Shown: in pieces, positions 17,103-62,355 of the stretch
Position numbering within the stretch: position 1 is the stretch's first letter
Layout of the letters: every line of letters begins with the position of its first letter
From: a virus
IMG/VR virus record: IMGVR_UViG_3300020120_000133
Span: 1-64,000 of that record
Direction: 5' to 3' (one strand)
Length of the DNA stretch: 64,000 nt
Translations under genes and position numbers: made by a program
Notes under the pieces: generated by a model
What the model saw: the letters and a program-made list of their open reading frames with translations, nothing else
Database searches by the model: none
What the model was told of the DNA's origin: nothing

Positions 17103-17111
17103 TCAGCGGAA

Positions 17112-17522
17112 TCAGACGACTTCGCGCTGCCGCCACGCCATAACCACCAGCGGGGAAACGAGATCAGCGCGGGAGATCGTCAACCTGTCGAGCATCTGGT
17201 AGGCCATGCCGCTGCAGTACAACCCGAGATGGTTCCTTCGGAGATCGCCGATCATGAGGATGTCGCCGTCGCGCCAGACGCCAGTGACCTCGATGCGTTG
17301 GAATCGCCGGTCCAACCGTCGCGCGACTTCGGCGAAGCGATGGGGGCGCAGGTGATCGCGCTCGCCATAGGGAATGTCCAGGTCGTTGAACGGCCGGCCG
17401 ACGAGTTCGTAGATCAGCAGGACGAGACCGAGACAATCGACGCCATCGAAGTCCCTGCCGTGGTGAACGCGATTGATATCAGCGGGGATTGATGCGACGG
17501 CTTCCGGAAAGGTCATGGGCAT
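17112..17522 (-). CDS. NlpC/P60 (C40) peptidase, tail-tip protein (lambda K / GTA g14-like)
   Basis: GVDCLGLVLLIY (catalytic Cys context) and NHLGLY (His). Synteny between the DUF2163-like and J-like genes. Confidence 0.75.
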   Translation of the reverse strand: MPMTFPEAVASIPADINRVHHGRDFDGVDCLGLVLLIYELVGRPFNDLDIPYGERDHLRPHRFAEVARRLDRRFQRIEVTGVWRDGDILMIGDLRRNHLGLYCSGMAYQMLDRLTISRADLVSPLVVMAWRQREVV

Positions 17523-18463
17523 CAGCCGGATATAAGTGTCGGGATCGCTTGGCCGTAGGGCGCGGTCGTGAAGCCGCCAAAATTAAAAGCATTCCCATTC
17601 GGTGCCGGCCCGAACGTGGAACATGAGCGGTCACCCAAAAGGGTTTTGCTACATTGCATTCGAATGATCAGCGCATCCCCCGGTGCCGGCGCCTGCAGGA
17701 ACGGATATCGCAGGTAAAGCCGGCGCTGCCCCGCGACGACTTGATAGCGCTGTGCCGGCCGCTGCTGCGACGTCAGATTGCCCGAAGTAAAAAAAACTAC
17801 TGCATCTTCCCAAACTGCATTCGGATTCGCGGGCGATCCAGCATCCGTCAGCGCCTGCGCCGGCAACCGAATGTACGAGTCGGTGCTGCCGGAAAGCGCG
17901 GTTGTCGATACCGAGTAGGGGTTTGCCGCCAGATTGAACAGCGGCGTCGCGCCGAGACAGGCGCGGGATCCGAAAGTGTAAGGGCAAGATTGTTGAAACT
18001 GCCGGCGCGGCACGATCAGTTGGGCCATCATCCCGAGGACCGGGACGATCTCGAAACTCAAGGCCGCTTCGGTCAACTGCGCGCCCCTGATCTCCCCGAC
18101 GGTCAGGACGATCGCGTCGTTGGGATTGTCGAGCAACCGGCGATCGACGACGCGCAACGTCGCCTCCGCGCCTTCCAGTTCGTTCGTGTTCAGCAGCGCG
18201 GCCATCTGGAGGTTGATGTTGGAGATCAGCATGTTGACGCTGGGAACGTCGCCCGCTTGGGTGGACAGCACTTCCTCGACGAGTCCGCGCGTCATGTTCA
18301 TCGGCACGTAGGTGTTGCCATTCCACGTCAGTTGTTCGCCGGGACTGCAGAGATGGAGCGCCGAGGCCGCCGTGGTTCCGGCGAATCGGATGTCGAGAAG
18401 TTCGGCCCGCATCATCTCGCCCCCGTTTAGTACGCGAAGTAACCTTCTGCTGCACCGTTTCAT
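17522..18463 (-). CDS. DUF2163-like minor tail protein (lambda L / GTA g13-like)
   Basis: AELLDIRFAG...LTWNGNTYVP pattern and a Cys-containing C-terminal half. Synteny supports the call. The start may instead be ATG 18415 or 18412. Confidence 0.65.
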   Translation of the reverse strand: MKRCSRRLLRVLNGGEMMRAELLDIRFAGTTAASALHLCSPGEQLTWNGNTYVPMNMTRGLVEEVLSTQAGDVPSVNMLISNINLQMAALLNTNELEGAEATLRVVDRRLLDNPNDAIVLTVGEIRGAQLTEAALSFEIVPVLGMMAQLIVPRRQFQQSCPYTFGSRACLGATPLFNLAANPYSVSTTALSGSTDSYIRLPAQALTDAGSPANPNAVWEDAVVFFTSGNLTSQQRPAQRYQVVAGQRRLYLRYPFLQAPAPGDALIIRMQCSKTLLGDRSCSTFGPAPNGNAFNFGGFTTAPYGQAIPTLISG

Positions 18464-18478
18464 GTCGGAGTCAGACGA

Positions 18479-19057
18479 TCAACTCCGGCAACGGCCGCAT
18501 TCGCATCGTGGCGCGAATTCGTCATAAATTGCGTTGAGGATTCCGGCGAATCGTTCCTCGATTTTCGCGCCGACACGATCATCGCGCGACACCGTTTTGA
18601 CGATGGGACAGCCGAAATCGCGGGGCACGTAGATGATGTGGGCCTGTCGCCACGGCCCCCAGTGCATGTAGGCTTGGACCTGATCGAAGTGGCGGCGGCT
18701 GATGTCGGGATGTTCGCGCAGATGCTTGTTCGTCGTGCTTTTGATCTCAAGCATGTCGCCGCGCCACTCGCCATCAGTGTGACCCTTGACCATTCCATTG
18801 AACGCGCTGAGTTCAATTCCCGGTTTGACGTCATCGCCAAGCAGTTTCAGGACCGCCGCCTCAATCGTGTAGCCGAGCCACGCGCCGATGTGATTGTCGA
18901 TCGTGGCTGGCGTTCCGTCGAAATATTCGAAATACAGGACGCGCGGGCATTCGCTGGCTTTCGACATTCCGATGTATGGCCGGCGCTCGTCGAAGCCGCT
19001 GTTCTTCTGAAGCCGATCGATCAAAAGCCGATGAAGAGAATCAGAGGGGTTCGCCAT
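18479..19057 (-). CDS. Cas4-like PD-(D/E)xK nuclease with four Cys (putative Fe-S cluster)
   Basis: SECPRVLYF (N-terminal Cys), GHTDGEW...MLEIKS (D...ExK), QVQAYM (QxxxY) and C-terminal CECGRC. A cargo gene inside the tail operon. Confidence 0.65.
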   Translation of the reverse strand: MANPSDSLHRLLIDRLQKNSGFDERRPYIGMSKASECPRVLYFEYFDGTPATIDNHIGAWLGYTIEAAVLKLLGDDVKPGIELSAFNGMVKGHTDGEWRGDMLEIKSTTNKHLREHPDISRRHFDQVQAYMHWGPWRQAHIIYVPRDFGCPIVKTVSRDDRVGAKIEERFAGILNAIYDEFAPRCECGRCRS

Positions 19058-19099
19058 GCCGTGATTTTATCGTAACTGCATGGCGTCGTTTTCGATCCG

Positions 19100-19399
19100 T
19101 CAGACGCACTCGATTCTGGTGGGACGGCCGGTTTGTTCGCGCAGGACCACAAGGGATCGCAAGAGGACTTCTTTGAGATGGTCCACGTCATCGAAATAGC
19201 CGCTGCGACCGTCGTGAGTGAGGCAGGCGGATCGCCAAAGGCCGTCGGGGTGAAGGTAAATCGCGGGACATTCGCGGCCTTCGCGCCAGAACCGAGGATC
19301 GGGCCGAGATGCGAAGTAGCCGTCCGAACGGTATCCGATCCGAATCACCGTCTCTTCCACCAATGAGCAACCGGGCGGCAGTTTGAAATTGGACGGCAT
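19100..19399 (-). CDS. Hypothetical protein (99 aa)
   Basis: ORF-track ORF behind GAGGAAAGG. Confidence 0.45.
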   Translation of the reverse strand: MPSNFKLPPGCSLVEETVIRIGYRSDGYFASRPDPRFWREGRECPAIYLHPDGLWRSACLTHDGRSGYFDDVDHLKEVLLRSLVVLREQTGRPTRIECV

Positions 19400-19435
19400 G
19401 GCGCGATCTTACCTTTCCTCGCACAACACGTTCGA

Positions 19436-20785: not shown

Positions 20786-20793
20786 CGATCAGG

Positions 20794-21225
20794 TCAGACG
20801 GATTCGTCGGCGCGTTGCTTCTCCAGCCAAGCGTGGGCCTCTTTGGATATTTTGTCGAGTCCCTGCTGAAGCTGCTTTGCGTTCATCGCGTTATCGTCGA
20901 TCAGACAGAATTGCTCTATCAGGTCTTCCGCTTCCGAGAGTCGTTCCCTCGCCTCAAGGAATTTCCGCAGCACCCAGCACCGATTGCACCCACACGATGG
21001 CGCATGCAATAGCGCCTTTGCGCGTCGCACATCTTCGTTTGGCTGATCGCTCATGGAAGCTGATCTTACCGCGAGCGGCAGCTTCGTCACGCTACAGGCA
21101 TGATCGTTCGGCGGATCGATGGCGGCGCATCCCACCAGCGCGGCCAGTATGTACCCGGCGGCGGCGAATGCGATGATCGCGAGGGTCATCAGGGCGATGA
21201 AGCGGAGGCAGTCGCGGAAATTCAT
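20794..21225 (-). CDS. Putative lipoprotein (lipobox LVGC) with a helical C-terminus
   Basis: MNFRDCLRFIALMTLAIIAFAAAGYILAALVGC. Start taken at the ATG overlapping the upstream stop (TGATG). Confidence 0.45.
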   Translation of the reverse strand: MNFRDCLRFIALMTLAIIAFAAAGYILAALVGCAAIDPPNDHACSVTKLPLAVRSASMSDQPNEDVRRAKALLHAPSCGCNRCWVLRKFLEARERLSEAEDLIEQFCLIDDNAMNAKQLQQGLDKISKEAHAWLEKQRADESV

Positions 21226-21497
21226 CAGCATTCTCTCCAGACTCCGGCCTCCAAGAACCCGTGCCATTGCCCGTCGTGCCGCGTGATCAGGATCGACGGC
21301 GAAACCGTGATCGTGCCGTCCGGATGTTCTTCGACTTTGTGGCCGCCGAGATTGGCGATAAACAGATTGTGGGCGTCGAGAGGATGGGTCTTCTCTGATG
21401 CCCGTCGCGGCGCACAGGCGTACCAGTGGCCTTCTACTTTCCCGTAGTCACCGGGGCTCGGAAGTCCCGGCGGATCATCGATGCGCTTGCCTTGCAT
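21225..21497 (-). CDS. Small protein with an SPSI...WHGFL motif (DUF6527-like)
   Basis: TGATG overlap with the upstream gene. TVSPSILITRHDGQWHGFLEAGVW is paralogous in motif to 52181..52522 and 52519..52917. Confidence 0.5.
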   Translation of the reverse strand: MQGKRIDDPPGLPSPGDYGKVEGHWYACAPRRASEKTHPLDAHNLFIANLGGHKVEEHPDGTITVSPSILITRHDGQWHGFLEAGVWREC

Positions 21498-22213: not shown

Positions 22214-22220
22214 GCGGGGA

Positions 22221-23324
22221 TCAGACGAATAGCTGCGGTTGATGCTGGCGTTGCGCCCACTCGATCCGGCGTCGCGCGATATCGACGTAGTTCTCGTCGC
22301 CGGGTCCGGCTGGACAGCGTTCGATGCCGGTGAAATCCCTGCCCGTCAGCATCGCGGCCATTCCGGTCGTGCCCGAGCCAGTGAAAGGATCGAGGACGCT
22401 GCCGCCGGTTGGGGTGGACGTCAGCTTGCAGAGATAAGCCATCAAATCGAGCGGCTTTACGGTCGGGTGCGGATTGTTCTCCCCCGGGTTCAGCCCCGCG
22501 TTGCGTTGGGCCTTGCTGGCTTTGGAACAGTAGAAAAAGCGCGACGCGCCGCCGCTGTCGCCGTAGGTTCCGGTGGACGTCGCTTCGTCGGGGAAGTTGC
22601 CCATGTACCCGCCGCCGCCAAGGGAGGACACGCGGCGCTGCCCCGGTTTCATCATTCCACTCGCGAGAGTTCCGGTCTGCTGATCTAATAATTCCGACGC
22701 CGCCTCGTCCATCGCCACGTTTGCAGGCCATCGACCCAGCGGCGATACTGCGCCGTCCCCACTCGTTCCGCCGGCGATTCTCCAATTTTCTCGGTCTTTC
22801 CGGGGTTCATACTCTCTTGGTTTCCCGATCTCGTCGCCTTCAATTCTTCCCGCGTCGATGTTGAATTCGCGGACGCGATCGGCATATTTCCGCGCCACGA
22901 TGATCGGTTCCCACGCTGGCTTCAACGAACTTCGCGCCTTCGGAAACCCCTGTCCGAATAGCCAGCAGATTGTGTCGGTGATCTCCCATCCGCCATCTTC
23001 AATCGCAACCGCCAACCGATGAAACGTGCGAGGACCCCCGAACGACAGCAAGAATGCGCCCGGCTTGGCGACGCGCAGAACCGCCTGCCACGTTTCCGGC
23101 CTGAACGCGACGTCGCCGCCGTCCCAAGTCTTGCCCATGAATCCCTTGGAGCCGAGGCGCGTGCGCCCAAACGGCGTCGCCGGATCGTTGATTCTCGCGC
23201 TGCCGTTGCGGCTGCGGCTGGTCAAATGATAAGGCGGATCGGTAATCACCGTGTCGAAACTGTCGGCGGCGAACGTCGGCAGGACCGCCAAGCAATCGCC
23301 GTGATGGAGCGCGAATTCGGGCAT
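22221..23324 (-). CDS. DNA methyltransferase, beta class (DPPY then FxGxG), N6-adenine or N4-cytosine
   Basis: VITDPPYH near the N-terminus and VLDPFTGSGTTGMAA near the C-terminus. Inserted between tail genes and has its own leader. Confidence 0.8.
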   Translation of the reverse strand: MPEFALHHGDCLAVLPTFAADSFDTVITDPPYHLTSRSRNGSARINDPATPFGRTRLGSKGFMGKTWDGGDVAFRPETWQAVLRVAKPGAFLLSFGGPRTFHRLAVAIEDGGWEITDTICWLFGQGFPKARSSLKPAWEPIIVARKYADRVREFNIDAGRIEGDEIGKPREYEPRKDRENWRIAGGTSGDGAVSPLGRWPANVAMDEAASELLDQQTGTLASGMMKPGQRRVSSLGGGGYMGNFPDEATSTGTYGDSGGASRFFYCSKASKAQRNAGLNPGENNPHPTVKPLDLMAYLCKLTSTPTGGSVLDPFTGSGTTGMAAMLTGRDFTGIERCPAGPGDENYVDIARRRIEWAQRQHQPQLFV

Positions 23325-23359
23325 CGCGTGACTCTATCGTGATTCCCCGCCAGCGTTCA

Positions 23360-23824: not shown

Positions 23825-23877
23825 TTCGGTCTCTCCGATTCACGCAAAAGTAAAGATGTAAACTACCTCTTTACATT

Positions 23878-24261
23878 TCAAACCGTCTCGATCGTCCCGA
23901 GTTCCAGCCGCCGTCCGACCTGATCGAACTGCACGACCCTGAGTTTCAGCGCCGTCGCATAAACGCCGTGATCGCTGACGTTCATTTCGTGGTAGTAGGT
24001 CCACCGGCTGATCGGCGCCAGCAGCGGCGCGGACTCCGAGACAACGTCGCCGGTCGCGGGATTCAGGATCTCGACAACGGTGTGGCGAATGTCGGGTGCC
24101 AACGTCGCGCCAAAGCCGGCGGGTTCGAAGCCGACAGCCTCGCGGCCAATTCCGACTACGGCGCTCAAGGGGTTCCAAACGACGGTCAAGTCATCACTAT
24201 CCGCAATAGTGACAGGTCCCGAGGGTGCGCGATGCTCGACGCCGTTGACGATCAGGTTCAC
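23878..24261 (-). CDS. Hypothetical tail-operon protein (127 aa, GTG start)
   Basis: ORF-track ORF. The CGTCTGA box lies 8 nt upstream. Confidence 0.5.
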   Translation of the reverse strand: MNLIVNGVEHRAPSGPVTIADSDDLTVVWNPLSAVVGIGREAVGFEPAGFGATLAPDIRHTVVEILNPATGDVVSESAPLLAPISRWTYYHEMNVSDHGVYATALKLRVVQFDQVGRRLELGTIETV

Positions 24262-24276
24262 AGCGGAATCAGACGA

Positions 24277-25938: not shown

Positions 25939-25956
25939 GAGAACGGCAGACGCGAT

Positions 25957-26334
25957 CTACATGCCGCTGCCGAATGGCTTTAACTTCTCGTCGATATCGA
26001 AGACCTCGAAATTTCTCGCGACGATCCTGATCGCCTCATCGCTGTCTTTCAGGAAAATGCGATATCGGTTTAATGTTTGGTGGACGCCCTTGTGATGCGC
26101 GGCGCACAAGGGTCTCAAACTGGCGATTGGCTCGCGCCCGAGGTTGCGATAATCGGTGTGGTGAAGTTGGACGCGACGCGCATCGCAGATCAGGCAGCGT
26201 TTTGGCAGCGGGGATTCGAAGTATCGGTCTCGGATCAGCCACCAGCGCGGGGACGAAAGATAGCGCCGCAGCGTACTCGGCTTGGGTCGGTGATCGCCGT
26301 TCGCAACCGCAGCCCAGAACGTATCCGTGTTCAT
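25957..26334 (-). CDS. HNH endonuclease
   Basis: CLICDARRVQLHHTDYRNLGRE...LRPLCAAHHKGVH. Start at ATG 26334 behind GGAG. Free-standing gene directly after the tape measure. Confidence 0.6.
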   Translation of the reverse strand: MNTDTFWAAVANGDHRPKPSTLRRYLSSPRWWLIRDRYFESPLPKRCLICDARRVQLHHTDYRNLGREPIASLRPLCAAHHKGVHQTLNRYRIFLKDSDEAIRIVARNFEVFDIDEKLKPFGSGM

Positions 26335-26440
26335 GGGGAACTCCTGTGATGGGAAAAACTGTGGAACGGTCTTCGGCGGTTTCGGCGACGTGCCGATCCC
26401 AAAAGGTGGACCCAAATAATCACGAAGTTCAGGTGAGTTG

Positions 26441-29503: not shown

Positions 29504-29527
29504 GCACAGATCAGACGACGCGAAGGC

Positions 29528-29563
29528 ATTAAAATGCCCGCGATCTACGGGAAGATCGCGGGC
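29528..29563 (-). terminator. Rho-independent terminator just upstream of the tape measure start
   Basis: The minus strand reads GCCCGCGATC-ttcccgta-GATCGCGGGC followed by ATTTTAAT. Confidence 0.6.
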
Positions 29564-29629
29564 CGTTGCGTTGCGTCGCGGGGCGATGCGTAGCGACGAG
29601 TTGCGGAGCGAGGCGGTGCGGCGAAAAGA

Positions 29630-30205
29630 TCAGGCCGCGAGAGTTTCGGCCCGGGCCAAGAAATTCTGAACGTCGAACCTTCCGTAGTAACCGTTCTGGC
29701 GAGGCCGGAATCGCCCAAGTCCAATATATTTCCCCGCCGCGATGAGATACCGATGCAGGACGTCCGGCGTGATGATCGGGTCCAGCACGATGATCTCCGC
29801 GTTCGCCTTCCAAGAATGAAAGATCGGGTAGGTTTTCCAGATACGCTTCCCGGAGCCGCGTTTGCCATCGGACGGGAGAAACAGCCGTTCACTCGGGACA
29901 TCGTCGGCCTTGACGCCAAGCATCAGGGGATCGAGGACCGTGACGCCAGCCTCGAAATTCTTCGTATACGTCGCCTTTCCCTTTCCGGGGATTGATTCGG
30001 AAAGGTATTTCGCGATCTCGCTCAGGCAGTTTTTGAGCGCCGTCGGCGGAATGAACGCCTCGCCGTCGGCGTCGCGGTGAATGTGTTCTCGCCACGTTCG
30101 CTTTTCGAATTCGTCGTGCGGTTCGTTCTGGCCCCGGACAGACTGAATCGCCGCTGATTGGCTGTATGGCGTCACGCCAACGATCATGCAGGTGCATCGA
30201 ATCAT
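29630..30205 (-). CDS. Hypothetical protein (191 aa)
   Basis: ATG 30205 behind GGAGAA. Protein-like sequence (…GLGRFRPRQNGYYGRFDV). I do not recognise the family. Confidence 0.5.
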   Translation of the reverse strand: MIRCTCMIVGVTPYSQSAAIQSVRGQNEPHDEFEKRTWREHIHRDADGEAFIPPTALKNCLSEIAKYLSESIPGKGKATYTKNFEAGVTVLDPLMLGVKADDVPSERLFLPSDGKRGSGKRIWKTYPIFHSWKANAEIIVLDPIITPDVLHRYLIAAGKYIGLGRFRPRQNGYYGRFDVQNFLARAETLAA

Positions 30206-30432
30206 CGAAGCTTCTCCGCTGCAAAAGCACCGCCCCGGGTTGCGATCTGCCGGTAAGGACAGGACCAAGGGCGGTGCGGGGTTCCGAAATTTAAGGGGAA
30301 CAGCAGATCGCAAAAGCAGAGTAACCGCGCCGAATCCGAAGTCAAGTGATAAAGTCACCTTTCTTTCGTCTGCAATGACATCCGCCGCACCGGGCAGCGG
30401 CGACCGGCGTATCTGCTTCGAATGGGCCGACC

Positions 30433-47690: not shown

Positions 47691-47895
47691 TGGTCACTTC
47701 CCGGTCGTGCCACGCCGAGGGGAAACGGTCGCTGCGCAGCCGCCATATTTCTCGTTCGACCGATGGGATTTTGCTTCTGGAAGCCAGAAAGATATCGGCG
47801 GTGTATTCAAGCTCGTGAAGCAGCGCCCCGACCGCCTGTTTCGAGACCGTCGCCCGAACCGTCGCGCCCGTTTTTACGGCACCCATCAACCGCAT
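47632..47895 (-). CDS. Candidate 87-aa ORF overlapping the 3' ends of the BCS1-like and GT39-like genes
   Basis: Starts at the ATG of GCGTCTGATG, the same stop/start box used at 21497 and 53429. By hand count its third-position GC is higher than that of either overlapping frame. The overlapping tails of the BCS1-like and GT39-like ORFs look like junk. Confidence 0.3.
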   Translation of the reverse strand: MRLMGAVKTGATVRATVSKQAVGALLHELEYTADIFLASRSKIPSVEREIWRLRSDRFPSAWHDREVTIRVGKSGMTIACGLDSILL

Positions 47896-49042
47896 CAGAC
47901 GCTTCGCGCATCGACAGCAGCCGTTCTTGGATCGCCGCCATGCTGCGCCCGGCCATTTCCTTCGCGAATCCAGCGGCGTCGCCGTTGACCCCCGCGCCCA
48001 TGAATCTTCGGTACATCGCGGCTGCTTGTTCCTCTGTGGCATCGTCGATCAGCAGGTGGACGTCGGCGCGTCCCGGTCGGACCAGTGCGCCGTCCAGCTT
48101 GTCGCGATGGTTCGTCGTCATCATGAGGATTTGGCCCTCCTTAGCGACGACGCCGTCGATGGCGTTGAGTAAGCCGCTGAAGGTGAGGTCGTGATTGCTG
48201 TCGCGCCCCTTCCATGCGGCATCGACATCTTCGATGAGAAGGACGCTGTTCGATGGAGTCCGAATCAGGCATTCGATGAGATCGTTGTCGCTCTTGAAAC
48301 TCGACAGGCTCAGGACGCACAGATTCCTTCCCAACTCACTCGCCATCGCGTGCGCCAGCGAACTCTTGCCGTTTCCCGGCGGTCCATGAAGCAGGTAGCC
48401 GCGACGCCACGGGATGCCACGGTCGAAGTACCATGCCTTCGATCCGATAAACCGAACGGCGTCCGCGATCAGCGCCTCGGCCTTCCCGCCGGGCAGCACA
48501 ACCGAGGCGACGCGGCGGATCGGCTTACGATCAGCCAACTGCCAGTTCGGCCCCGACGGCACCCACACTTCCACGACCGAACCATTCTTGAACTTCGCGA
48601 ATCGATAGGCTTCTTCAAGCAGTTCCTCGAATATTTTCTTGTCGCGCCCGAGGCATTGCAGCGTGATCAATTCACGGTAGCCGTTCTGCATCTGCAGTTC
48701 TTTTCTCTCGACCCAAACGACGATGCGGCGGCCCCGGAAGCGCAGCCAGCAGAAACTGATCGGGAACAGTGAGAAGTCCGGTTTCACCGGGCCAGTTCCG
48801 GGACCATCAGGAAAGACCGCGTTGATCCCCATCCATCGGGATTTCGAATTCGCGGCCAGCCATTGCTTCACCCACGCGAACGCGCAGTCGCTGTTGTCGA
48901 TTTCCGCCGTCAACAGCAGCCGATTCTTGATCCAGCGGAGGATCGCTTTCGGCGCATCTCGACACGCGGCGGCGCACCAACCAGCGGCGACGACCGCGAG
49001 GCCACCGGAGAAGAAGGGGTTGTGGAGAAGTTCCGAGATCAT
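47807..49042 (-). CDS. BCS1-like AAA+ ATPase with an N-terminal membrane anchor
   Basis: GYLLHGPPGNGKSS (Walker A), VLLIEDVD (Walker B), MTTNHRDKLDGALVRPGRADV. Hydrophobic N-terminus. ATGA overlap with the PDF stop. Confidence 0.8.
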   Translation of the reverse strand: MISELLHNPFFSGGLAVVAAGWCAAACRDAPKAILRWIKNRLLLTAEIDNSDCAFAWVKQWLAANSKSRWMGINAVFPDGPGTGPVKPDFSLFPISFCWLRFRGRRIVVWVERKELQMQNGYRELITLQCLGRDKKIFEELLEEAYRFAKFKNGSVVEVWVPSGPNWQLADRKPIRRVASVVLPGGKAEALIADAVRFIGSKAWYFDRGIPWRRGYLLHGPPGNGKSSLAHAMASELGRNLCVLSLSSFKSDNDLIECLIRTPSNSVLLIEDVDAAWKGRDSNHDLTFSGLLNAIDGVVAKEGQILMMTTNHRDKLDGALVRPGRADVHLLIDDATEEQAAAMYRRFMGAGVNGDAAGFAKEMAGRSMAAIQERLLSMREASDAVDGCRKNGRDGSGDGLETGGRGAASRA

Positions 49043-49635
49043 TTGATGCCGACGGCGCGTTGCAGTTCCCAAGCCTCGCCGACGCGACAAATTCCGGAAA
49101 GATGGTCGATCTCATGCTGGACCACTCGCGCGGACCAAGCGACGAAGGTGAGTTGCGTCAGCATCCAATCGAGGCCGCGATATTGCACCGTGATCCGATT
49201 GAACCGCTCGACGTTGGCGCGGACGCCGGGGAACGACAAGCAGCCCTCGACGGAAACGTTGGTCTCGGCGCTGTGATCGATGATCTCGGGGTTGAGCATG
49301 AATAAGCCGTTCGTCCGGTTCGGTGCCACGAAGACGGCGCGGCGCAGCCAATCGATTTGATTCCCCGACAGCCCGACGCCGCCAGCCGAATACTCACAAG
49401 CCGTCCGCAGCAGCCGCAGCTTGGCGACATCCCTTAAATCTTCTTCGGTGAACTCCGCAGCCACGGCTTTCAGGGACGGATGCCCGAACTTCACGATCTT
49501 CGTTGTCGCGGCACCGCAGCATCCTTTGGCTTTGGTGCCGCTGCCGCAGGGACACGGCGAATTTCTGTCATACCCGCGAAATAACTGCACCGGACGATCT
49601 AACGGCAGGATTGCAGATTTTTGATCGGTGTTCAT
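49039..49635 (-). CDS. def: Peptide deformylase with an N-terminal SEC-C metal-binding motif
   Basis: GVGLSGNQI, EGCLSFPG and QHEIDHL are the three PDF motifs. CPCGSGTKAKGCCG is a SEC-C motif. The ATG overlaps the T-frame stop (TGATG), with AGAGGA upstream. Confidence 0.8.
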   Translation of the reverse strand: MNTDQKSAILPLDRPVQLFRGYDRNSPCPCGSGTKAKGCCGAATTKIVKFGHPSLKAVAAEFTEEDLRDVAKLRLLRTACEYSAGGVGLSGNQIDWLRRAVFVAPNRTNGLFMLNPEIIDHSAETNVSVEGCLSFPGVRANVERFNRITVQYRGLDWMLTQLTFVAWSARVVQHEIDHLSGICRVGEAWELQRAVGIK

Positions 49636-50569
49636 CACATCCTCTTGGACTCCCGCTTCGCCTTCTCGATCGCGGCGGCGCGGCGCTTATCCTCGATCGC
49701 CGCGCGCTTCTGCGTCGCGACCCGATCGAGTAACCACATCAACTCCAACGTCTCCCAGCGCTGCAGTTCCGACATCACGTTCAGCCGGCAATGCTGATCC
49801 AGAATCGCGACGGCCTGTTCCATCTGAAGCGTCCCGAAAAGGCTCGCCGATTCTCCGCTTCTGAGGTCCGACGCCGCCAGCCGGTACAGTTTGACCGCCG
49901 TGAAGTTCGCCGGGTGCAGGCCGAACGTCGCGGGATACAGCAGATATTTCGGACATCGTCGGCATGGCGGATCGCGCCTCGGAACGATCGCTTTGTGCGC
50001 GGTGATGCAGCTTTTGCAGTTCCCGGTGACGCTCTCGGACGTGTTGAAGACCGGGTTCAGGCCGAACTCGTAGCCGGCCCAGTCGATGAGTTTTTTACGC
50101 GGGTCTCCCAATCGGCGGCTTGGAAGCGGCCGATGTCCTGACAGATCGTCCAAACGAAGTTGCTAAACGGCTTGCAGTGATCGAGGACGAAAAGGATGTT
50201 CTCTCTCGCCTCGCTCGACTTCCCGGAAACCGACGGGTCCATCGGAACCTCGGCGTCCATGCCGCCGCATTTCGCGACTTCGTCGGCATCCAGCGGCACC
50301 ATTGATCGCAGTTTCGCGAACGTCACCTTCTCACAACGAATCACGGCTTGCAGGCAAACTTCCTGCACGACGGCGAGTTGGAACGCGGCCGGGGACTCTT
50401 CGCCCTCGCGACGCCCGCGCAATTTGATGAGGTCCTGGACCTCGCGCATCGCGTCGGGTCCGAGAAACTGCAGCCAGACCTTAAACCCAGTGGTGTCGTC
50501 GGCGTTCTCTGGATACCAGAACAGTCGCGTCAGGGCGCCGGCTTTCGGCTTCATGTTGCTGAGGTTCAT
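49635..50569 (-). CDS. Tail assembly chaperone GT fusion made by a -1 programmed frameshift
   Basis: The T frame (49635..50153) has no plausible own start and overlaps the end of G by 97 nt. The slippery A_AAA_AAC is in the correct phase. Located directly downstream of the tail tube gene. Confidence 0.65.
50057..50569 (-). CDS. Tail assembly chaperone G (170 aa)
   Basis: AAAGGAA SD. Position after the tail tube gene. C-terminal ...DWETRVKNSS contains the slip site. Confidence 0.65.
   Translation of the reverse strand: MNLSNMKPKAGALTRLFWYPENADDTTGFKVWLQFLGPDAMREVQDLIKLRGRREGEESPAAFQLAVVQEVCLQAVIRCEKVTFAKLRSMVPLDADEVAKCGGMDAEVPMDPSVSGKSSEARENILFVLDHCKPFSNFVWTICQDIGRFQAADWETRVKNSSTGPATSSA
50090..50096 (-). 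promoter_or_regulatory. Slippery heptamer A_AAA_AAC (-1 ribosomal frameshift site)
   Basis: G frame reads GTA AAA AAC. The -1 frame continues AAA AAA CTC ATC GAC, giving KKLID..., which is exactly the T-frame ORF. Confidence 0.65.
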
Positions 50570-50618
50570 AGTGACGTTCCTTTACCACAAAGCCCCCCAT
50601 CTCGTTTCGCCTCAGGCG

Positions 50619-50648
50619 CAAAAAACCGCCCGGCAACGCACCGGGCGG
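50619..50648 (-). terminator. Rho-independent terminator/attenuator after the tail tube gene
   Basis: Minus strand CCGCCCGG-tgcgttg-CCGGGCGG followed by TTTTTTG. Confidence 0.7.
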
Positions 50649-50676
50649 ACCAAAGGAGTGAAGGGGGACTGAAGGT

Positions 50677-51690: not shown

Positions 51691-51751
51691 CTGCTGATCT
51701 CCTGTGGAGGTCACAGACGCCTTTGGCGGGTTGGCTGGCCGTGCGGGAGGC

Positions 51752-54800: not shown

Positions 54801-54810
54801 ATTCTCCACC

Positions 54811-54846
54811 AATAAAGACGCCCCCGACGGGTAAATGCCGGGGGCG
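54811..54846 (-). terminator. Rho-independent terminator/attenuator after the major capsid gene
   Basis: Minus strand CGCCCCCG-gcatttacccgt-CGGGGGCG followed by TCTTTATT. Confidence 0.7.
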
Positions 54847-54874
54847 ACGAGCGAGTGTAAGAGCTTCGTGAAAT

Positions 54875-56182: not shown

Positions 56183-56237
56183 CGGACGATCTCCTGTTGT
56201 TGCCTTCACAGACGCTGCGGTCGGGTTTTTGCCGATC

Positions 56238-57929
56238 TCAGGCGAGACGCAGTTCGCGGCGCACGGCTTCGACTTCCTCGTCCTGGCCGGGCTTCGGTTC
56301 CACCGGATCGATGCCGGTGATCGCATGGAGCGGGTTGGTTCGCTTGGAGCCGATCACCGCGTCGTATTCGGCGGTCTTTTCCTTGATGAACGCCGTGGCC
56401 TTGGCGACGTCGAAATCCGCGCTGTCGATCAGGCCCTTGCCGTCCTTGTCCGCGATCTTGGCGCCGATGACGGCGGCGTACTTGTCGTCCTTCAGCAGCG
56501 CGGGCAGCGCCTTCGTGACCTCAGCGCGGCGGGCGAGGTCCTTGTTGGCCGCTTCCTGGGCTTCGAGCTTGCCCTTCAGTTCTGCGGCCTCGTCGGTCGC
56601 CTTCTTGGTCGCGGCCTCGGCGTCGATCGCCTTTTTCTCCGCGTCCTTGAGTTCCTGCTTCAAGCCGGCGATCTCGTCGGCCAGCGGCTTCGTCGCCTCT
56701 TGGGCGGCGTCCTTCTTGGCCTGTTCGACGACCTGCAGGTGCTGGGCGAAAACGGCCCCATGCTGCGCTTCGAGTTCCTTGAGGTCTTTCATGTCCACGG
56801 TCTCCGTGTTGAGTGCTTGATCGGTACTGTCCCGCTTAGACGCTGGGGGTGTGCCGCCGGGCATCACGGCATCGACAACCGAGGGGTTATCCACCGGGTC
56901 GATCGCGATGAGTTCCCAATCGGGATTGATGACGACGACGCCGTCATCGACGCCGTCCTTCAGCCCGTATTTGGTCTTCTCTTCCGGGGTCGGGAAGTGG
57001 GCCGATCCGTAGCCCCGGGTGCTGAAACCGATCCCCCGGCCGGCGTCGATCAAAGCCTGCAAATCGGCGCCGCAGGTGTGGCCGACGATGCTCTCGAAAT
57101 CGCCCCGGACATCCCCGGCGGTCATCATTTCGAGGCCGCGCCAGATGATTGCCGCGTCCTTGAGGGGGTCGTAGCTGTGATCGAGACATCCCCCCATCAT
57201 CCCGGCCGCCATCTTGGCCTTGGCCCGCTCCAGTTGGACGGCCCAAACGGCTTCGGGGTAAATCCGCCGATTCCCGTTGACCTTATTTGCCTGCCCGACC
57301 TTGACGCCCTCGTATCGCGGGTTCGTGCCGGCGGCTTCGGATTTGCCCGACCCCGACGCCTTGAAGACATCGACCGCCGATTCGATCAGCTCGTAGCGGT
57401 TGCCGGATTCGCACAGGATCCGGTTCTGTTCGCGGGCATCCAGTCGCCGCCACTGCTCCGGTTCGATCGATTCCTTGGCCGCGAAGGTCGCGCCGCACTC
57501 GGCGCATTTCATCATCCCGGGCTTCCCCGGAACCGCCGAGACTTCATCGCTGCCGCAGTCCGGACAGACCTGCTTGGCCGATGCCGATTCCCCCATCTGC
57601 TGCATCAGGTTCGCGCAAGCCGATGAGATCGCGGAAAGACCCTGCTGGCTGGCGCGGCTGTGGGCGGCGGCGACGCCACGGCGGAAAATCTTGATCTCGC
57701 CGCCGACTTTCTTGGCGAACGGGTATTTGTACCGCCCCTTGGTTTTGTCGCTGACGCTGCCGTCCTCGCCGAGATGGCACTTCGCGTAGGTCGTCCAGTC
57801 GTCGCCGTTGGGACCCAAGAGTGCGTCGCCGTCGGCACCGCTGAAACTCCAACTGCCCTTTTCGATCTTGCCGTCTTTGACGAGTTCGTGGGCGTAATCG
57901 ACGCCGGCTTGATAAAGTTTGACAGCCAT
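56238..57929 (-). CDS. Prohead protease / scaffold fusion protein
   Basis: NKVNGNRRIYPEAVW resembles the prohead-protease motif. The C-terminal ~200 aa is Ala/Lys/Glu coiled coil (scaffold-like). A zinc-ribbon-like CPDCG...CAECG insert is present. Confidence 0.6.
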   Translation of the reverse strand: MAVKLYQAGVDYAHELVKDGKIEKGSWSFSGADGDALLGPNGDDWTTYAKCHLGEDGSVSDKTKGRYKYPFAKKVGGEIKIFRRGVAAAHSRASQQGLSAISSACANLMQQMGESASAKQVCPDCGSDEVSAVPGKPGMMKCAECGATFAAKESIEPEQWRRLDAREQNRILCESGNRYELIESAVDVFKASGSGKSEAAGTNPRYEGVKVGQANKVNGNRRIYPEAVWAVQLERAKAKMAAGMMGGCLDHSYDPLKDAAIIWRGLEMMTAGDVRGDFESIVGHTCGADLQALIDAGRGIGFSTRGYGSAHFPTPEEKTKYGLKDGVDDGVVVINPDWELIAIDPVDNPSVVDAVMPGGTPPASKRDSTDQALNTETVDMKDLKELEAQHGAVFAQHLQVVEQAKKDAAQEATKPLADEIAGLKQELKDAEKKAIDAEAATKKATDEAAELKGKLEAQEAANKDLARRAEVTKALPALLKDDKYAAVIGAKIADKDGKGLIDSADFDVAKATAFIKEKTAEYDAVIGSKRTNPLHAITGIDPVEPKPGQDEEVEAVRRELRLA

Positions 57930-57948
57930 CTTGGCGTCCTCAGACGCC

Positions 57949-60900
57949 TTAAAGCGGTTCCCCCGTCGCGCTCGGCAACTCGAAAGTCCCCTGATTCGGA
58001 ACCGTGAAGGTCACGTCAGAACCATTTCCAACGCCGTAGACGTAGATGCCGCCGCGATAGGCTTCGAACTGCAGCAGGTCGCCGGCGCCGACGGTTTCCT
58101 CGTTCAGATGGGTCGAATATCCGCCCGGCGATCCCGGCGGCGGTGTCGTCAGCCGCCAGCGGTACAGCGCGTCGGCGTCGCGGTTGGTGACGAAACAGGT
58201 GCATTTCAGGGGGTCGGGCGACGGCGTCACCGTCTTGGGCGTCATCGAAATGGTCTTCGTCCCAGCGTTGCTCGATACCACGACCGTCGCGCTGCCGAAT
58301 TGGTAGCCCGTCGCCGCCGCCGTGATCGTGTAGGTCAGTGCATCGACGGTGTGGAATGTCGCGTTGCCGCTGCTGTCGGTGACTTCATCGTAGCCGGTGG
58401 CGCCGTTTTGAAGATGAACTTCTACGCCTTGGATCGCGGCGCTGCCGTCGTTGACCGTGATCACGACCGTCGCTGGCCCGGTCCCGGCACCGCCACTTCC
58501 GCCGCCGCTATTCAGTTTCGCGCCAGTCGTCCCGGCGGTGAGATGATCGGCCATCGCTTCGTCCCAAACGGCGTCGGCGACATCGGCCGCGCTGCTGCCG
58601 ATCCAGGCGAGGTCGCCGCGATCGCGCAGGGCTTCCAGCGAATCGGTCGCCGGGTCGAACGTGCCGCCGACATCCGAGGGCGTCGTCGCGGTCTTGCTGA
58701 AGGCTGATTTCAGGAACCCGAGGATCGTGTTGACCCCGCTGCCCGTGAAACTGCCGACGCGGTTCATCAGGGTCGATAGGTTCGTCGAGATCGTCGCGAT
58801 GGTTGTGTTGTCTGGCGCGGTATAGCCGCTGGTCGCGAGGCGCGTGCTGGTCGCGACATCGGTTCGAGTGAGGATCGTCCCGATGCTGGTGTTGTCGGGC
58901 GCGGTGTAGGAAGTCGTCGCCAGCCGACTGCCGACAGTCGCGTTGAGGTTCGTCGAAATCGTTCCCTGCGCCGTGATGGCATTCGGCGAATCCGCCGCGT
59001 TCGTCGCGATGAGATCGGTCTTCGCCTTGATCGCCGCCGTTGTCGCCGTCAATTCGGCATCCTGAATTTCCGTGGCATCGGAGACTGAGAACGGAACCGC
59101 TCCGACCGCCCATGTCGCATCGAAGATGGCTTCCTGCGCCGTATCGGTGCTGGCGACCGTAAAGGTGACCTTGTAGCGGCCCAGCGCGATCAGCGTCATG
59201 GTCGTGCTGCCGAGGCTCGAATCCAAACTGCTTCCGGCGGGATTTCGCGCATGGATCGTCGGTGCCGCGTCCGGCGCTTCAAGCTGGCCTTGCAGGTTGT
59301 AGACATTGAGGTCGATTTCATAACTCGTCGATCCCGCAGCCGGGCGCACCAGCCAATACGGGAGAACGAGGCGACCGCGCGCCGTGTTCGTCGTGATCGC
59401 GTTGACGGCGTTGAGGATCGTCGTCTGGCTCGCCGCCGTCCCGACCGCGTTGCCGCTGGCATCGACGACTCGCGCGCCGGTCCCGGTGATCGCACTGATC
59501 CCGCCGCCGAGGACCTTGCCGCCGACATCGCCGGAGACATTCCCGCTGATGGTCACGGCCCAAGTGTCGTCGGCTTCGTTGAACTGCTGGATCATCGTGT
59601 CCAGAGTCCCGTCTCTCGAAATCGGGTTGAATTTGACGCCACCGAAGCCCGCAATAAGGTGCATTCCATCGGACACGCCAGCGGTCCCGCCGGTAACAAA
59701 CATCCCGTGTTTGCTGGTGCCGTTGGCGGTCGCGACGATGCCATGACCCGCAGTCGGCGTGATGTTCAATCCGTTGCCGGAGGTCGTCGTCACATAGAGG
59801 CCATCCCCGCTCGTCCCGCCTCCGATCCATCTCATGCCCGCGCCGGTTGCGCCGCCGTCCGCCTCCATGCCGTTCCCCGTTCCATTGCCGATGACGTGGA
59901 AGCCGTGATAGCCGGTCCCCTGCGCCTCTGCCCGCAAACCCGATCCGCTTGTCGCCCCGCCGATCAGATACATGCCGCGCCCGGTTGCGCCGCCCGTTGA
60001 TTTGAAGCCGTTGCCCGTGCCATTACCCGACAGCACCATCGCGTTGCCGTTACCGCCGGAACTGGTGATCGTGAAGGCGTCGCCGGAAGCGTTGGAGATT
60101 GTCAATCCGGCGGTAGCCGACACGGCGCCAGCGAAAGTCACGTTCCCCGAACACGACAGTGAAGTGAGTGAGATGTTGGCGGCATAAGAAACGACGCCAG
60201 CATGACTGACCGTGCCCGAGAAAGTGGTGTTGCCAGCAATGGAGAGGGACGAACCCAACGAGACCGCGCCTGCGAGTGTCGTCGCGCCGGAGTTGTTCAG
60301 CGAAGAAAGCGTGACGCCCGCAAAGGTCGTATTGCCCGCGACCGAGAGGGACGACGAAAGCACGACGGCGCCAGCGTGGGTGGTGTTGCCGGTCACGTTG
60401 AGAGAGGTCATCGTGAAGGCGCCGATATGGTCGTATGTCTGCGGCCCGGTAACGTCACCAGCCGCAATCGTCGCAGCCGGTTTCAGGCTGCTGTTCAGCG
60501 CCGGGGCTTCGATCGCTCGAATCGCAAAGACGCTTCCGCTCGCCGGATTCGTAATCCAGTTCCAATCGACCGTCGCGGCCTTGGTGGTTCCGTTGTATGC
60601 CGTGCAGACGCGCGATTGCCCGGCGCCCGTTCCCGCCGTAACCGTGAGGATGCACCCCTTGTAGATGTCCGTGGTCGCCGATGCCGATGCGTCGAGCGTG
60701 ATGCCGCTGTTCGTCCCGCCCTGCGCCTGACCGCTGCGGAGCGGATCGGACAAGGCGTTCCACACGAAACTGCCGGTGATAATCCCGCCGACCGTGGCGT
60801 AAACGAAAAGCTGCGAGTTGTCGCCCGAAACAAGCGTTGGAAGCGTGACCGTCAGCTTGTAGGTTCCAGTGACGAGACCACTGGCAACCGTAACGGCGTT

Positions 60901-61023
60901 GGCGCTGGCGGTGCCGTTGACGACCAGTGTTGCGGCTGGGGTGCTGTCGGCATTGACGAGCGCGCCAGTCCCGCTATTAACCGAGTGTTGGTGCGTGAGG
61001 GTTGCGCCGCCGACTGCGTTCAT
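57949..61023 (-). CDS. Fibre-like structural protein (1024 aa) with Gly-rich repeats and a CarboxypepD_reg-like domain
   Basis: Repeats such as GNGTGNG..GGATG.GM. VITVNDGSAAIQGVEVHLQNGATGY...SGNATF is the carboxypeptidase-regulatory-like pattern. Confidence 0.6.
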   Translation of the reverse strand: MNAVGGATLTHQHSVNSGTGALVNADSTPAATLVVNGTASANAVTVASGLVTGTYKLTVTLPTLVSGDNSQLFVYATVGGIITGSFVWNALSDPLRSGQAQGGTNSGITLDASASATTDIYKGCILTVTAGTGAGQSRVCTAYNGTTKAATVDWNWITNPASGSVFAIRAIEAPALNSSLKPAATIAAGDVTGPQTYDHIGAFTMTSLNVTGNTTHAGAVVLSSSLSVAGNTTFAGVTLSSLNNSGATTLAGAVSLGSSLSIAGNTTFSGTVSHAGVVSYAANISLTSLSCSGNVTFAGAVSATAGLTISNASGDAFTITSSGGNGNAMVLSGNGTGNGFKSTGGATGRGMYLIGGATSGSGLRAEAQGTGYHGFHVIGNGTGNGMEADGGATGAGMRWIGGGTSGDGLYVTTTSGNGLNITPTAGHGIVATANGTSKHGMFVTGGTAGVSDGMHLIAGFGGVKFNPISRDGTLDTMIQQFNEADDTWAVTISGNVSGDVGGKVLGGGISAITGTGARVVDASGNAVGTAASQTTILNAVNAITTNTARGRLVLPYWLVRPAAGSTSYEIDLNVYNLQGQLEAPDAAPTIHARNPAGSSLDSSLGSTTMTLIALGRYKVTFTVASTDTAQEAIFDATWAVGAVPFSVSDATEIQDAELTATTAAIKAKTDLIATNAADSPNAITAQGTISTNLNATVGSRLATTSYTAPDNTSIGTILTRTDVATSTRLATSGYTAPDNTTIATISTNLSTLMNRVGSFTGSGVNTILGFLKSAFSKTATTPSDVGGTFDPATDSLEALRDRGDLAWIGSSAADVADAVWDEAMADHLTAGTTGAKLNSGGGSGGAGTGPATVVITVNDGSAAIQGVEVHLQNGATGYDEVTDSSGNATFHTVDALTYTITAAATGYQFGSATVVVSSNAGTKTISMTPKTVTPSPDPLKCTCFVTNRDADALYRWRLTTPPPGSPGGYSTHLNEETVGAGDLLQFEAYRGGIYVYGVGNGSDVTFTVPNQGTFELPSATGEPL

Positions 61024-62249
61024 GTGATCAGCCTTCCTCTACCGATTGACGGACCACCGGCGAGCGTGCCTGTGGAAATCGCGTCGCTGTAGCCGAACGT
61101 CTTGCTGCTTTGGACGACTGACACCGCTGGCAAAGTCAAATACCCATTCACCCAATTCGTGCTCGTCGTGATCGTTCCCTTGTAGGTGAAGATCGGGATG
61201 CCACCGCTGGAGTCGATGTCGGTGGGGTCAACAAAGTCCAGGGACGAATCCGCGCCGCTGTTAAGTGTGAGTATCGCCTTTGTTCCCGGCGTGCTGGCAA
61301 CCAGTGTCAGTCGGTTTGCAGAGCTGGTCTGAGGCGCAAACCAGGAATTAGTGATGGTGTAAGTGTTACTGGATTTCAGGCTAAGCGTAGCCGCTCCCGC
61401 TGTATTGGTCAGCGTCGATGCAGAAAACCCGCTCGTTCCAACAAAACTGGTGCTTCCAGTTGGCAACTGAAGCGTCCCGCTGATCGCCAGAGCGGAGTTG
61501 ACCGTGGCGACCGTGCTCGCCGATAGTGATACGTTGTTCCATGTAACCCCGCTTGTGCTCAATGTGCCGTTGACGCCGAGGGCTAAAGTCGATCCAGTGG
61601 TAACGACAGTGCCCGATGAATAGGTCAAGGGACCGCCACGAAATGACACCGTTCCACTGAACGTGATGTTTCCGCCTGCAAGGGTCAGGGCGTTTCTGAG
61701 TTGCCCAGCACCGCTGATCGTTCCGGCAGTCGCGGTGATTACGGTGGTCCCACTGACCGTGGTTGTTGTTACCGTAATTCCTCCCCCAACGCTCAACGTT
61801 GAACTATTCAGCGTAACCGCCGTCGTCCCGTTGAACGTCAGCGCCCCGTTGACAATCCACGCCCCCGACAGGGTGTAGGTCTGCGACGTACCCGCGAGTT
61901 GAAGCCCACCCGTCAGCGTCTTGCCGCCGCTGGTGAGGGTCGCGGTTGTGTTGCAGATCAGGTCTGAGGTCCCAGCAGGTGCGGCCATAGTGCTCGCGAA
62001 CGTAACCGTCCCGGCAACCGTCAAATTCGCATTGAATGTCAGCGTGTTGGTGTAGCCGGTGCAGACGATGGATGTGCAGGCCGAGGCAGCGTCGATGATG
62101 CAGGATGGTGAACCCGAGTCGAAAACCGCAGCATCGCCGTTGACCGCCTTCGTTGTATTGGCTGGTCCGCTGCTGGCGGTCGTGCTCCAGTTACCGTCTG
62201 TTGACCAGTTGGAGTTCACCCCGCCGTTCATGAAGAACTTGGTCGCCAT
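61020..62249 (-). CDS. Beta-strand-repeat (autotransporter-associated-repeat-like) fibre protein
   Basis: FMNGGVNSNWSTDGNWS... and many T/S/G-rich LT..G..TF repeats. ATGA overlap with the next gene. Confidence 0.55.
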   Translation of the reverse strand: MATKFFMNGGVNSNWSTDGNWSTTASSGPANTTKAVNGDAAVFDSGSPSCIIDAASACTSIVCTGYTNTLTFNANLTVAGTVTFASTMAAPAGTSDLICNTTATLTSGGKTLTGGLQLAGTSQTYTLSGAWIVNGALTFNGTTAVTLNSSTLSVGGGITVTTTTVSGTTVITATAGTISGAGQLRNALTLAGGNITFSGTVSFRGGPLTYSSGTVVTTGSTLALGVNGTLSTSGVTWNNVSLSASTVATVNSALAISGTLQLPTGSTSFVGTSGFSASTLTNTAGAATLSLKSSNTYTITNSWFAPQTSSANRLTLVASTPGTKAILTLNSGADSSLDFVDPTDIDSSGGIPIFTYKGTITTSTNWVNGYLTLPAVSVVQSSKTFGYSDAISTGTLAGGPSIGRGRLIT

Positions 62250-62355
62250 CGACTACAGCCTCCACGGGTTCGCTTGTTGCGCGCGACCGGCCAGCGATTG
62301 AGAGACCGTGCCGACAGATTGGGTCGTGAAGTCCATTTCCCCGAGATCAGACGCC

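Follow-up and report, generated by a model that had tools for sequence, protein, structure and literature searches.

A box ahead of head and tail genes is probably a single-element late promoter in a clade of uncultured phages

The window analysed here (64,000 nt, positions 1 to 64,000 of IMG/VR record IMGVR_UViG_3300020120_000133) is part of a 101-kb metagenomic phage contig. On its coding (minus) strand the heptamer CGTCTGA recurs a few nucleotides ahead of the start codons of head and tail genes. This box is real and it is conserved in related phages. We think that it is probably a late promoter element, driving transcription from at or just before the start codon, and not a replacement ribosome-binding site. 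It is thus best read as a known kind of phage late promoter in a previously undescribed variant, rather than as a new translation signal. The consensus (G/T)CGTCT(G/A)N would be the sole recognition element of the late promoters of the clade, similar to a -10 element and without a conserved -35, and the first transcribed base would be a purine 7 nt past the heptamer. Most tail genes have their start codon 6-8 nt downstream of the box, which predicts an mRNA that is leaderless or carries a leader of 1-4 nt; in such an mRNA a Shine-Dalgarno sequence (SD) would be neither present nor needed. For abundant proteins (capsid, tail tube and a nested scaffold protein) a short leader that contains a strong AGGAG would come behind the same box, and strong terminators would close the capsid and tube units. 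The reader would presumably be the host RNA polymerase with a phage-specified sigma-like factor.

Abundance and position of the box

CGTCTGA is found ten times on the coding strand of the window (plus-strand TCAGACG starting at 17112, 18471, 19100, 20794, 22221, 24269, 29511, 47895, 57940 and 62347) and once on the opposite strand (at 63852). The total of 11 copies is no excess over chance, since dinucleotide shuffles give 11.7 +/- 3.2, i.e. about 5.9 per strand and not the four or so assumed in the first-pass annotation of this DNA. What is enriched is strand and position relative to starts. Gene junctions account for nine of the ten coding-strand copies, all ahead of head or tail genes, and no plus-strand or replication gene is preceded by one; the first-pass claim of a strand-specific box (10:1) limited to late genes thus holds. 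For seven of the ten, the first start of an open reading frame (ORF) of 60 codons or more follows at a distance of 5-12 nt. When all 16,384 heptamers are scanned without preselection, CGTCTGA comes out on top for such start-proximal placement (P = 5e-9 against a background of NNNNTGA heptamers, 8e-5 after Bonferroni correction).

A heptamer ending in TGA might accumulate at gene ends merely by chance and stop-codon context. The total count, equal to the shuffle expectation, fits this explanation, and so does the fact that the TGA doubles as the stop of the upstream gene in five of the ten window copies. Yet the placement remains extreme when the comparison is restricted to heptamers with the same TGA, no other heptamer surpasses it, the box is conserved at orthologous junctions and it has stop-free variants (CGTCTAT, CGTCTGT and CGTCTGC). 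Chance and stop-codon context have therefore a negligible probability in our view. Where the TGA is not the stop, the latter is 1-11 nt off, and the five junctions at which the upstream gene had been said to end ahead of the box are borne out: the box is conserved independently of the upstream reading frame.

The sites of the window, all on the minus strand, are described here with Nx for the number of nucleotides between box and start codon. The spacing is N7 ahead of the baseplate hub gene (PF09931/PF09356; box 18471..18477, ATG 18463), a DUF2460-like gene (238 aa; box 22221..22227, whose TGA is the stop of a DNA methylase gene, ATG 22213), a 127-aa gene (box 24269..24275, GTG 24261), the gene of a 553-aa protein without family match (variant CGTCTGC at 25946..25952, ATG 25938) and the tape measure gene (1020 aa; box 29511..29517, ATG 29503). 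It is N8 ahead of the gene of a 449-aa tail protein (box 20794..20800, ATG 20785) and N9 ahead of the gene of a J-like tail protein (1689 aa; box 17112..17118, ATG 17102). The J-like junction has an identical 16-mer, TCGTCTGATTCCGCTG, in common with that of the 127-aa gene (17104-17119 and 24261-24276), as the first-pass annotation had noticed. N10 is found ahead of the protease/scaffold gene (563 aa, Peptidase_S77; box 57940..57946, ATG 57929), with GAGGA in the spacer, and ahead of a 27-codon ORF (box 62347..62353, 2 nt past the stop of a 115-aa gene, ATG 62336). One more copy (19100..19106) lies 42 nt upstream of the ATG (19057) of a Cas4-like nuclease gene, without a clear SD. Every box copy listed in the first-pass annotation is present where it had been placed, as are the variants, namely CGTCTGC at 25946-25952 and CGTCTGTGA at 56206-56214 and 51711-51719. 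The spacings given there were each 1 nt too large, the true range being N7 to N10, and neither the label "GH-like" for the 553-aa protein nor the terminase and portal labels implied for the 409-aa and 1024-aa ORFs discussed below has Pfam or PHROG support.

The tenth copy (47895..47901) had been taken for a stop/start overlap of real genes. It sits instead within the 3' part of an AAA-ATPase gene, N8 ahead of the ATG of an 84-codon ORF (47632-47886), and may be there by chance. The 84-codon ORF overlaps with the ATPase gene as well as with a convergent plus-strand gene.

Conservation in related phages

Protein searches retrieved a set of related metagenomic contigs (L001 and L003-L010; W stands for the window). 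When W, L003, L004, L006, L007, L008 and L009 are pooled, CGTCTGA is found 33 times on the coding strand and four times on the other (p = 1e-6), and 27 of the 33 copies are 6-28 nt ahead of a start. Hence the expectation that relatives should carry the box is confirmed. It is kept at orthologous junctions across phages whose capsid proteins are 49-62% identical to that of the window and whose GC content goes from 52% to 69%. The protease/scaffold orthologues, for example, are preceded by the box in L007 (8623), L008 (8615), L009 (8627) and L006 (384), the DUF2460-like orthologue of L004 has it at N9, and the 449-aa orthologue of L003 at N7 from a GTG.

In L005, the contig with 69% GC, the motif has changed throughout: ahead of the tape measure, DUF2460-like, 449-aa, hub and J-like genes it reads CGTCTAG, CGTCTAT or GTCTAA, at N6-8. 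The arrangement is CGTCTAG-N6-ATG at the tape measure gene, CGTCTAG-N6-GTG at the DUF2460-like gene, CGTCTAT-N7 at the 449-aa gene, TGTCTAT-N7 at the hub gene (behind a divergent junction) and CGTCTAG-N8 at the J-like gene. GTCTA[GAT] occurs seven times on the plus strand of this contig, which is the coding one, and never on the minus strand, and all seven copies are upstream of starts. No opposite-strand gene of L005 or L007 has a box ahead of it. Two conclusions can be drawn. As CGTCTAT contains no stop codon, a stop is not required and termination is not the point of the motif. And the switch at all L005 sites points to a factor that reads the box in trans and co-evolves with it. In the same contig, two tail junctions (6490-6540 and 9955-10003) have a common repeat of about 35 nt, in which a GC-rich hairpin (GCCCGG..CCGGGC) precedes (C)GTCTAT CCGGTC(G/A) ATG.

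The N-termini that follow the box coincide in homologues, so the box-associated starts are correct. The JGI call of the hub gene (P0005; window 17522-18463, minus strand) begins 16 codons past the box-associated ATG, and the N-terminus is conserved in L001, L003 and L005. For the capsid gene, the start at ATG 56182 agrees with the JGI call of 435 aa. The hub gene also provides what looks like a natural experiment. In the window, L005 and L001, with foreign genes inserted ahead of it, it carries a box; in L003, which lacks such an insert, an SD 8 nt past the previous stop is all that it has. The genes found in this gap between the 449-aa and hub genes differ among the window, L001 and L005.

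Spacing classes and the start-site signature

We aligned 46 curated sites and analysed their spacing, base conservation and SD content. Box-to-start distances are either N6-12 (35 sites, mode N7) or N19-28 (11 sites), and none falls at 13-18. The single N12 site, at the hub gene of L001, has an SD-like G-run (GGGGGG) in its spacer and was for this reason grouped with the long spacings. Class 1 thus comprises 34 sites at N6-11, of which 24 are at N6-8, and class 2 comprises 12 sites, mainly ahead of capsid and tail-tube genes. The two classes differ sharply in SD content: an SD core is found in one of the 34 class-1 sites and in ten of the 12 class-2 sites. The first-pass observation that genes right behind the box lack an SD is therefore correct. 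Many other genes of the window have an ordinary GGAG-type SD (the core is present in about 35% of all the genes of the window without a box), which indicates that the host uses SD pairing.

The capsid and tail-tube leaders of the window, both on the minus strand, illustrate class 2. In the former the variant CGTCTGT (56208..56214) is followed by AGGAGA at 56190-56195 and ATG 56182 (N25); in the latter CGTCTGT (51713..51719) is followed by AGGAGA at 51698-51703 and ATG 51690 (N22). The same layout, i.e. box, about 7 nt, purine, AGGAG, 5-10 nt and ATG, is found for these genes in W, L006, L007, L008 and L009.

The information in the 46-site alignment is confined to box positions -1 to +6 and to a purine at box+8, the position taken by the A or G of the start codon in N7 sites. 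Box+8 is a purine in 11 of the 12 class-2 sites (p = 0.003) and in 14 of the 15 class-1 sites with spacing of at least N8. Where the start codon does not cover the position, the count is 25 of 27, with box+7 being mostly a pyrimidine. This pyrimidine-purine step is tied to the box rather than to the start codon, the pattern that transcription beginning at a constant distance should leave. The starts would accordingly be placed at 18463, 22213, 24261, 25938 and 29503 for hub, DUF2460-like, 127-aa, 553-aa and tape measure genes, at about 17104, 20786 and 57932 for the J-like, 449-aa and protease/scaffold genes, near 56200 for the capsid unit, near 51705 for the tail-tube unit and at about 56828 behind an internal box described below. 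No conserved -35 was found in the 46 sites, where GGAAC or AAC was sought at 16-17 nt, and the positions 16-22 nt upstream are unconserved. A C is weakly enriched some 10-11 nt before the box (27 of 46 sites, p = 5e-5 uncorrected), which is not the distance of a -35; at the head-gene sites of the window it often stands within AACC(C)G.

These patterns bear on the first-pass proposal that the box acts in place of the SD as a non-SD initiation or reinitiation signal. CGUCUGA would then recruit ribosomes or drive termination-reinitiation, either directly or via a phage RNA-binding factor. The box does stand where an SD would be in the 34 sites at N6-11, nearly all of them SD-less; it is strand-specific, lies on or within 11 nt of the upstream stop in the window, and finds an analogy in the start-associated sequences of Cluster K mycobacteriophages. 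Yet of the 12 sites where the box is 12-28 nt upstream, ten have a canonical SD core between box and start and the N12 site has its G-run there, the conserved purine follows the box rather than the AUG, and the CGTCTAT of L005 holds no stop. A shared structure is also lacking: the RNA surrounding 23 sites had a mean folding z of -0.43 and no fold in common, an Rfam search gave no match, and the palindrome at 57933-57948 was not found at the other box sites. Pairing with the ribosome fares no better. CGUCUGA contains no GGAG, GAGG or AGGA, and by inspection it does not pair with the generic 3' tail conserved in 16S rRNA, GAUCACCUCCUU (with the CCUCC core). Together with the positions of the box at unit heads and inside the protease gene, this makes an RNA-level signal unlikely. 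We regard as quite unlikely the version in which the box is a clade-specific signal for SD-independent ribosome recruitment or reinitiation and the SD-bearing capsid and tube sites are a second use of it.

Boxes at the heads of transcription units

Several box-preceded genes stand behind divergent junctions (L005 5785 and 10001; L007 14521 and 17300). There is no upstream ribosome to reinitiate at such places, and the promoter must sit in the gap of 70-120 bp. Other boxes come directly behind terminators. In the window, a terminator-like hairpin with a T-run (29536..29563, minus strand), at the end of the chaperone ORFs, is 18 nt upstream of the tape-measure box (hairpin 29563-29536, box 29517). 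Equivalent cases are found in L008 (11402) and L007 (11390), and in L009 (11398) the T-run of the terminator abuts the box. Neither an upstream ribosome nor read-through RNA is guaranteed at these sites, which speaks against any role of the box that needs them. The putative chaperone ORFs overlap each other (29529-29919, minus strand) and closely precede the tape measure gene, the arrangement that a tail-assembly chaperone pair made by programmed frameshifting should have.

In the window, strong intrinsic terminators directly follow the capsid gene (54819..54846, minus strand; the gene stops at 54875) and the tail-tube gene (50626..50648, minus strand). They are the two strongest of the region. 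With box, short SD leader and terminator, the capsid and tube genes have the classic shape of what would be self-contained and highly expressed transcription units. A degenerate box (CGTCTTT, 54814-54820, minus strand) overlaps the capsid terminator and lies ahead of an SD and ATG 54800.

A further explanation is that a sequence-specific phage or host endoribonuclease cuts at the box or close to it and trims polycistronic late RNA to monocistronic mRNAs with short leaders or none. Such processing would account for both spacing classes, for the purine at a fixed distance, for strand specificity and for the lineage variants. However, it leaves unexplained the transcription of genes behind divergent junctions and the boxes that come right after the T-run of a terminator. 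The motif matches a known class of -10 elements, no hairpin context of the RNase III type surrounds it, and no candidate endoribonuclease emerged, the nuclease matches being only to Cas4-like and PD-(D/E)XK DNA nucleases and, weakly, to HNH. We hold RNA processing to be unlikely.

The -10 class in question is that of AlgU/RpoE-type promoters, whose -10 is the GTCTGA contained in the box, and two relatives encode proteins of the sigma70-ECF (extracytoplasmic function) superfamily. One is in L004 (957-1613, 218 aa, 70.9 bits), within the tail module, between the DUF2460-like and 461-aa genes. The other is in L001 (122-667, 46.6 bits) and is directly followed by CGTCTAG-N6-ATG, which opens a 178-codon ORF that is shortened in the public call. 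In the window, a search with phmmer using the sigmas of the relatives, and with Pfam and PHROGs, yielded only helix-turn-helix regulators and weak sub-threshold r4 matches.

A putative nested scaffold gene behind an internal box

A box copy also lies inside the protease ORF, in the linker past the protease domain (CGTCTAA, 56836..56842, minus strand). An internal CGTCT(A/G)N is found in the same phase and at the same aligned position in W, L006, L007, L008 and L009, within a linker whose amino acids are poorly conserved. In all five phages it is followed, 40-55 nt downstream, by a GGAG and an in-frame ATG, the first codon of a conserved MK(D/T)L.EL(K/E) sequence, and the internal methionine, the SD and the downstream sequence are kept. 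In the window the nested unit (56238..56805, minus strand) has its ATG at 56792, behind the SD GGAGA at 56801-56805; it ends at the stop of the protease ORF, 56238, and would encode 184 aa (MKDLKELE...). By these features the unit is a putative scaffold gene nested in the protease ORF with its own expression signals. Given its location, the internal box cannot be a junction linker or a replacement for the SD: it is far from a start that has an SD of its own. Together with the AGGAG of the capsid and tube leaders, this speaks against the notion that the box stands in for an SD.

Inserted genes between boxes

The first-pass annotation also suggested that the box is a linker for recombination. 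The heptamer would then provide microhomology for the exchange or insertion of cassettes, its proximity to starts being incidental. Three inserted blocks of the window are indeed bounded by boxes: a 99-aa ORF with the Cas4-like nuclease gene (boxes 19106 and 18477), the 553-aa gene (25952 and 24275) and a block of 409-aa and 1024-aa ORFs that is absent in L008 (62353 and 57946). The 16-mer shared by two junctions and the varying cargo of the gap between the 449-aa and hub genes (none in L003) point in the same direction. However, 7 bp are too short for homologous exchange, and a linker explains neither the strict spacing to starts and SDs, the fixed purine and the one-strand orientation, nor the internal protease box and the lineage-wide switch to CGTCTAG/T. 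Box copies on both sides of cargo are in any case expected if each late gene has its own promoter. The integron attC, with its 7-bp core and imperfect inverted repeat, spans 57-141 bp between cassettes; the box junctions have only 15-25 nt and no shared inverted repeat. A linker as the function of the box is thus highly improbable. What survives of the suggestion is that inserted blocks are box-bounded, perhaps only as a secondary consequence, and the box repeats might favour gene shuffling.

The cargo of the tail module is defence or counter-defence-like. It includes the Cas4-like PD-(D/E)XK nuclease (18479-19057, minus strand), an N6/N4 DNA methylase (22221-23324, minus strand) and a weakly HNH-endonuclease-like ORF (25957-26415, minus strand). 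We considered the box as the DNA-methylation target of two phage methylases and rejected this, the motif being one-stranded and tied to starts. The 409-aa and 1024-aa ORFs (57949-62336, minus strand) form an insertion relative to L008, between the 115-aa gene and the protease gene. Neither matches terminases or portals, the 1024-aa protein having only a CarboxypepD_reg-like domain, and the 409-aa ORF has an atypical GC content by codon position (0.43/0.63/0.68). The box at 62347..62353 is likely the promoter for this inserted block.

Genomic context

The window encodes a gp23-type capsid, an S77 prohead protease, a Phage_tube_2 tail tube and tail genes like those of gene transfer agents (GTA), together with an integrase, a DnaN-like clamp and a peptide deformylase. 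The latter has an N-terminal SEC-C motif and adjoins a BCS1-like AAA ATPase (47807-49638, minus strand); the AAA gene is kept near the tube gene in L007. No tRNAs were found. Among sequenced phages we found no close relative: megablast of the head and tail modules against INPHARED gave no match, and tblastn gave none for the capsid protein and only matches of about 25% identity for the tube protein. Nor did a relative emerge from IMG/VR when it was scanned with a capsid alignment and with the 449-aa, capsid and hub proteins, or from scans of JGI metagenomes and of GTDB genomes. In the literature, a search for the heptamer itself turned up nothing but incidental matches to primers.

Discussion

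Seven base pairs at a fixed place ahead of late genes, a purine at a constant distance from them and positions at the heads of transcription units all point to a promoter. Several observations nevertheless weigh against this interpretation. The distance from the box to the start purine, 7 nt (8 from the invariant CGTCTR hexamer), is 1-2 nt above the usual 6. Starts with GTG, present at four of the 34 class-1 sites, are poor for leaderless initiation in systems of the E. coli type, and the ten class-1 sites at N9-11 would give leaders of 2-4 nt, of uncertain translatability. A promoter ahead of almost every tail gene is unusually dense. At most junctions of the window, the upstream stop lies within 0-11 nt, so translational coupling is possible there. 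The search of the 64-kb window for a sigma, gp55-like or gp33-like protein found none, and about 37 kb of the 101-kb contig fall outside it. Finally, the 5' ends of the transcripts of these uncultured phages are placed here from sequence. This is why we take the promoter to be probable and keep its exact start site, the leaderless translation and the identity of the factor as predictions.

If confirmed, the box would reveal the late-promoter code of an uncultured phage clade with genomes of about 90-140 kb, which joins T4-type head genes with GTA-like siphovirus tails and has no relative among sequenced isolates. This code would use an ECF-type -10 without a -35, most tail genes would be driven as leaderless mRNAs, and a minimal SD leader plus a terminator would tune the code for abundant proteins. 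As whole lineages use either CGTCTGA or CGTCTAG, the clade would offer a testable case of co-evolution between promoter and sigma. There are also consequences for annotation. Gene callers that score the SD appear to misplace these SD-less starts, as in the hub call that is 16 codons late, and the box reveals the putative nested scaffold gene. Moreover, a promoter of its own for each gene suggests why foreign genes (nuclease, methylase, HNH) can settle in the tail operon.

Comparison with known systems

Mobile cassettes made of a promoter and a stem-loop (PeSL) have reportedly been described in T4-type phages by Arbiol et al. in 2010, with promoter repeats that bound variable cassettes and may favour shuffling. 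PeSL are early promoters with stem-loops, unlike the box, which precedes late genes and has no shared hairpin. The start-associated sequences (SAS) of Cluster K mycobacteriophages are 13-bp repeats, GGGATAGGAGCCC, with an SD core AGGAG, located 3-7 nt from the starts of non-structural genes (PMC3203893). Like them, the box is an asymmetric repeat in one orientation near many starts, ahead of unrelated genes, that sometimes includes the upstream stop, and its conservation across relatives parallels that of SAS across subclusters. Unlike them, it has 7 bp and no SD core, precedes structural genes and is also found far upstream of starts that have an SD.

The late promoter of T4 is a single motif, TATAAATA, used with gp55, gp33 and the gp45 clamp. 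The similarity lies in a single element of 7-8 bp without -35, repeated ahead of many late genes inside apparent operons, and in the gp23-type capsid, gp21-type (S77) prohead protease and sliding clamp of the window phage. The two motifs are, however, unrelated in sequence, T4 late mRNAs carry SD leaders, the tail is here of the siphovirus type, and the window yielded no homologue of gp55 or gp33. Promoters of the ECF type provide a second term of comparison, with AlgU having the consensus GAACTT-N16-17-TCtgA (PMC3819740). The box holds the GTCTGA -10 of RpoE/AlgU promoters and L001 and L004 have sigma70-ECF genes; unlike these promoters, its 46 sites show no GAAC or AAC -35 at 16-17 nt, and no sigma gene was found in the window. 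A phage sigma can nevertheless go with a single element in the -10 region: phiEco32's middle and late promoters have a single AATGTA element, which the phage sigma gp36 is presumed to recognise (PMC12276001).

In the Thermus phage Lalka27a, 16 late promoters were predicted in which only the -10 (TAGGGT) is distinctive; half of them had observed starts 6 nt downstream, and the transcripts are mostly leaderless, beginning at an initiator A or G (bioRxiv 10.64898/2026.04.20.719267). The motif of Lalka27a and phiYS40 is TANNNT-like and goes with a modified host sigma-A holoenzyme, whereas here it is CGTCTGA. The spacing is 7 nt here and 6 in Lalka27a. Leaderless mRNAs are normal in Thermus hosts; the phages of this clade have a GC content of 52-69%. 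In both systems, nevertheless, a short motif of the -10 type, without a -35, precedes many late genes, including genes behind divergent junctions, and the start purine lies at a fixed few nucleotides downstream, as measured in the Thermus phages and as the sites aligned here suggest for this clade.

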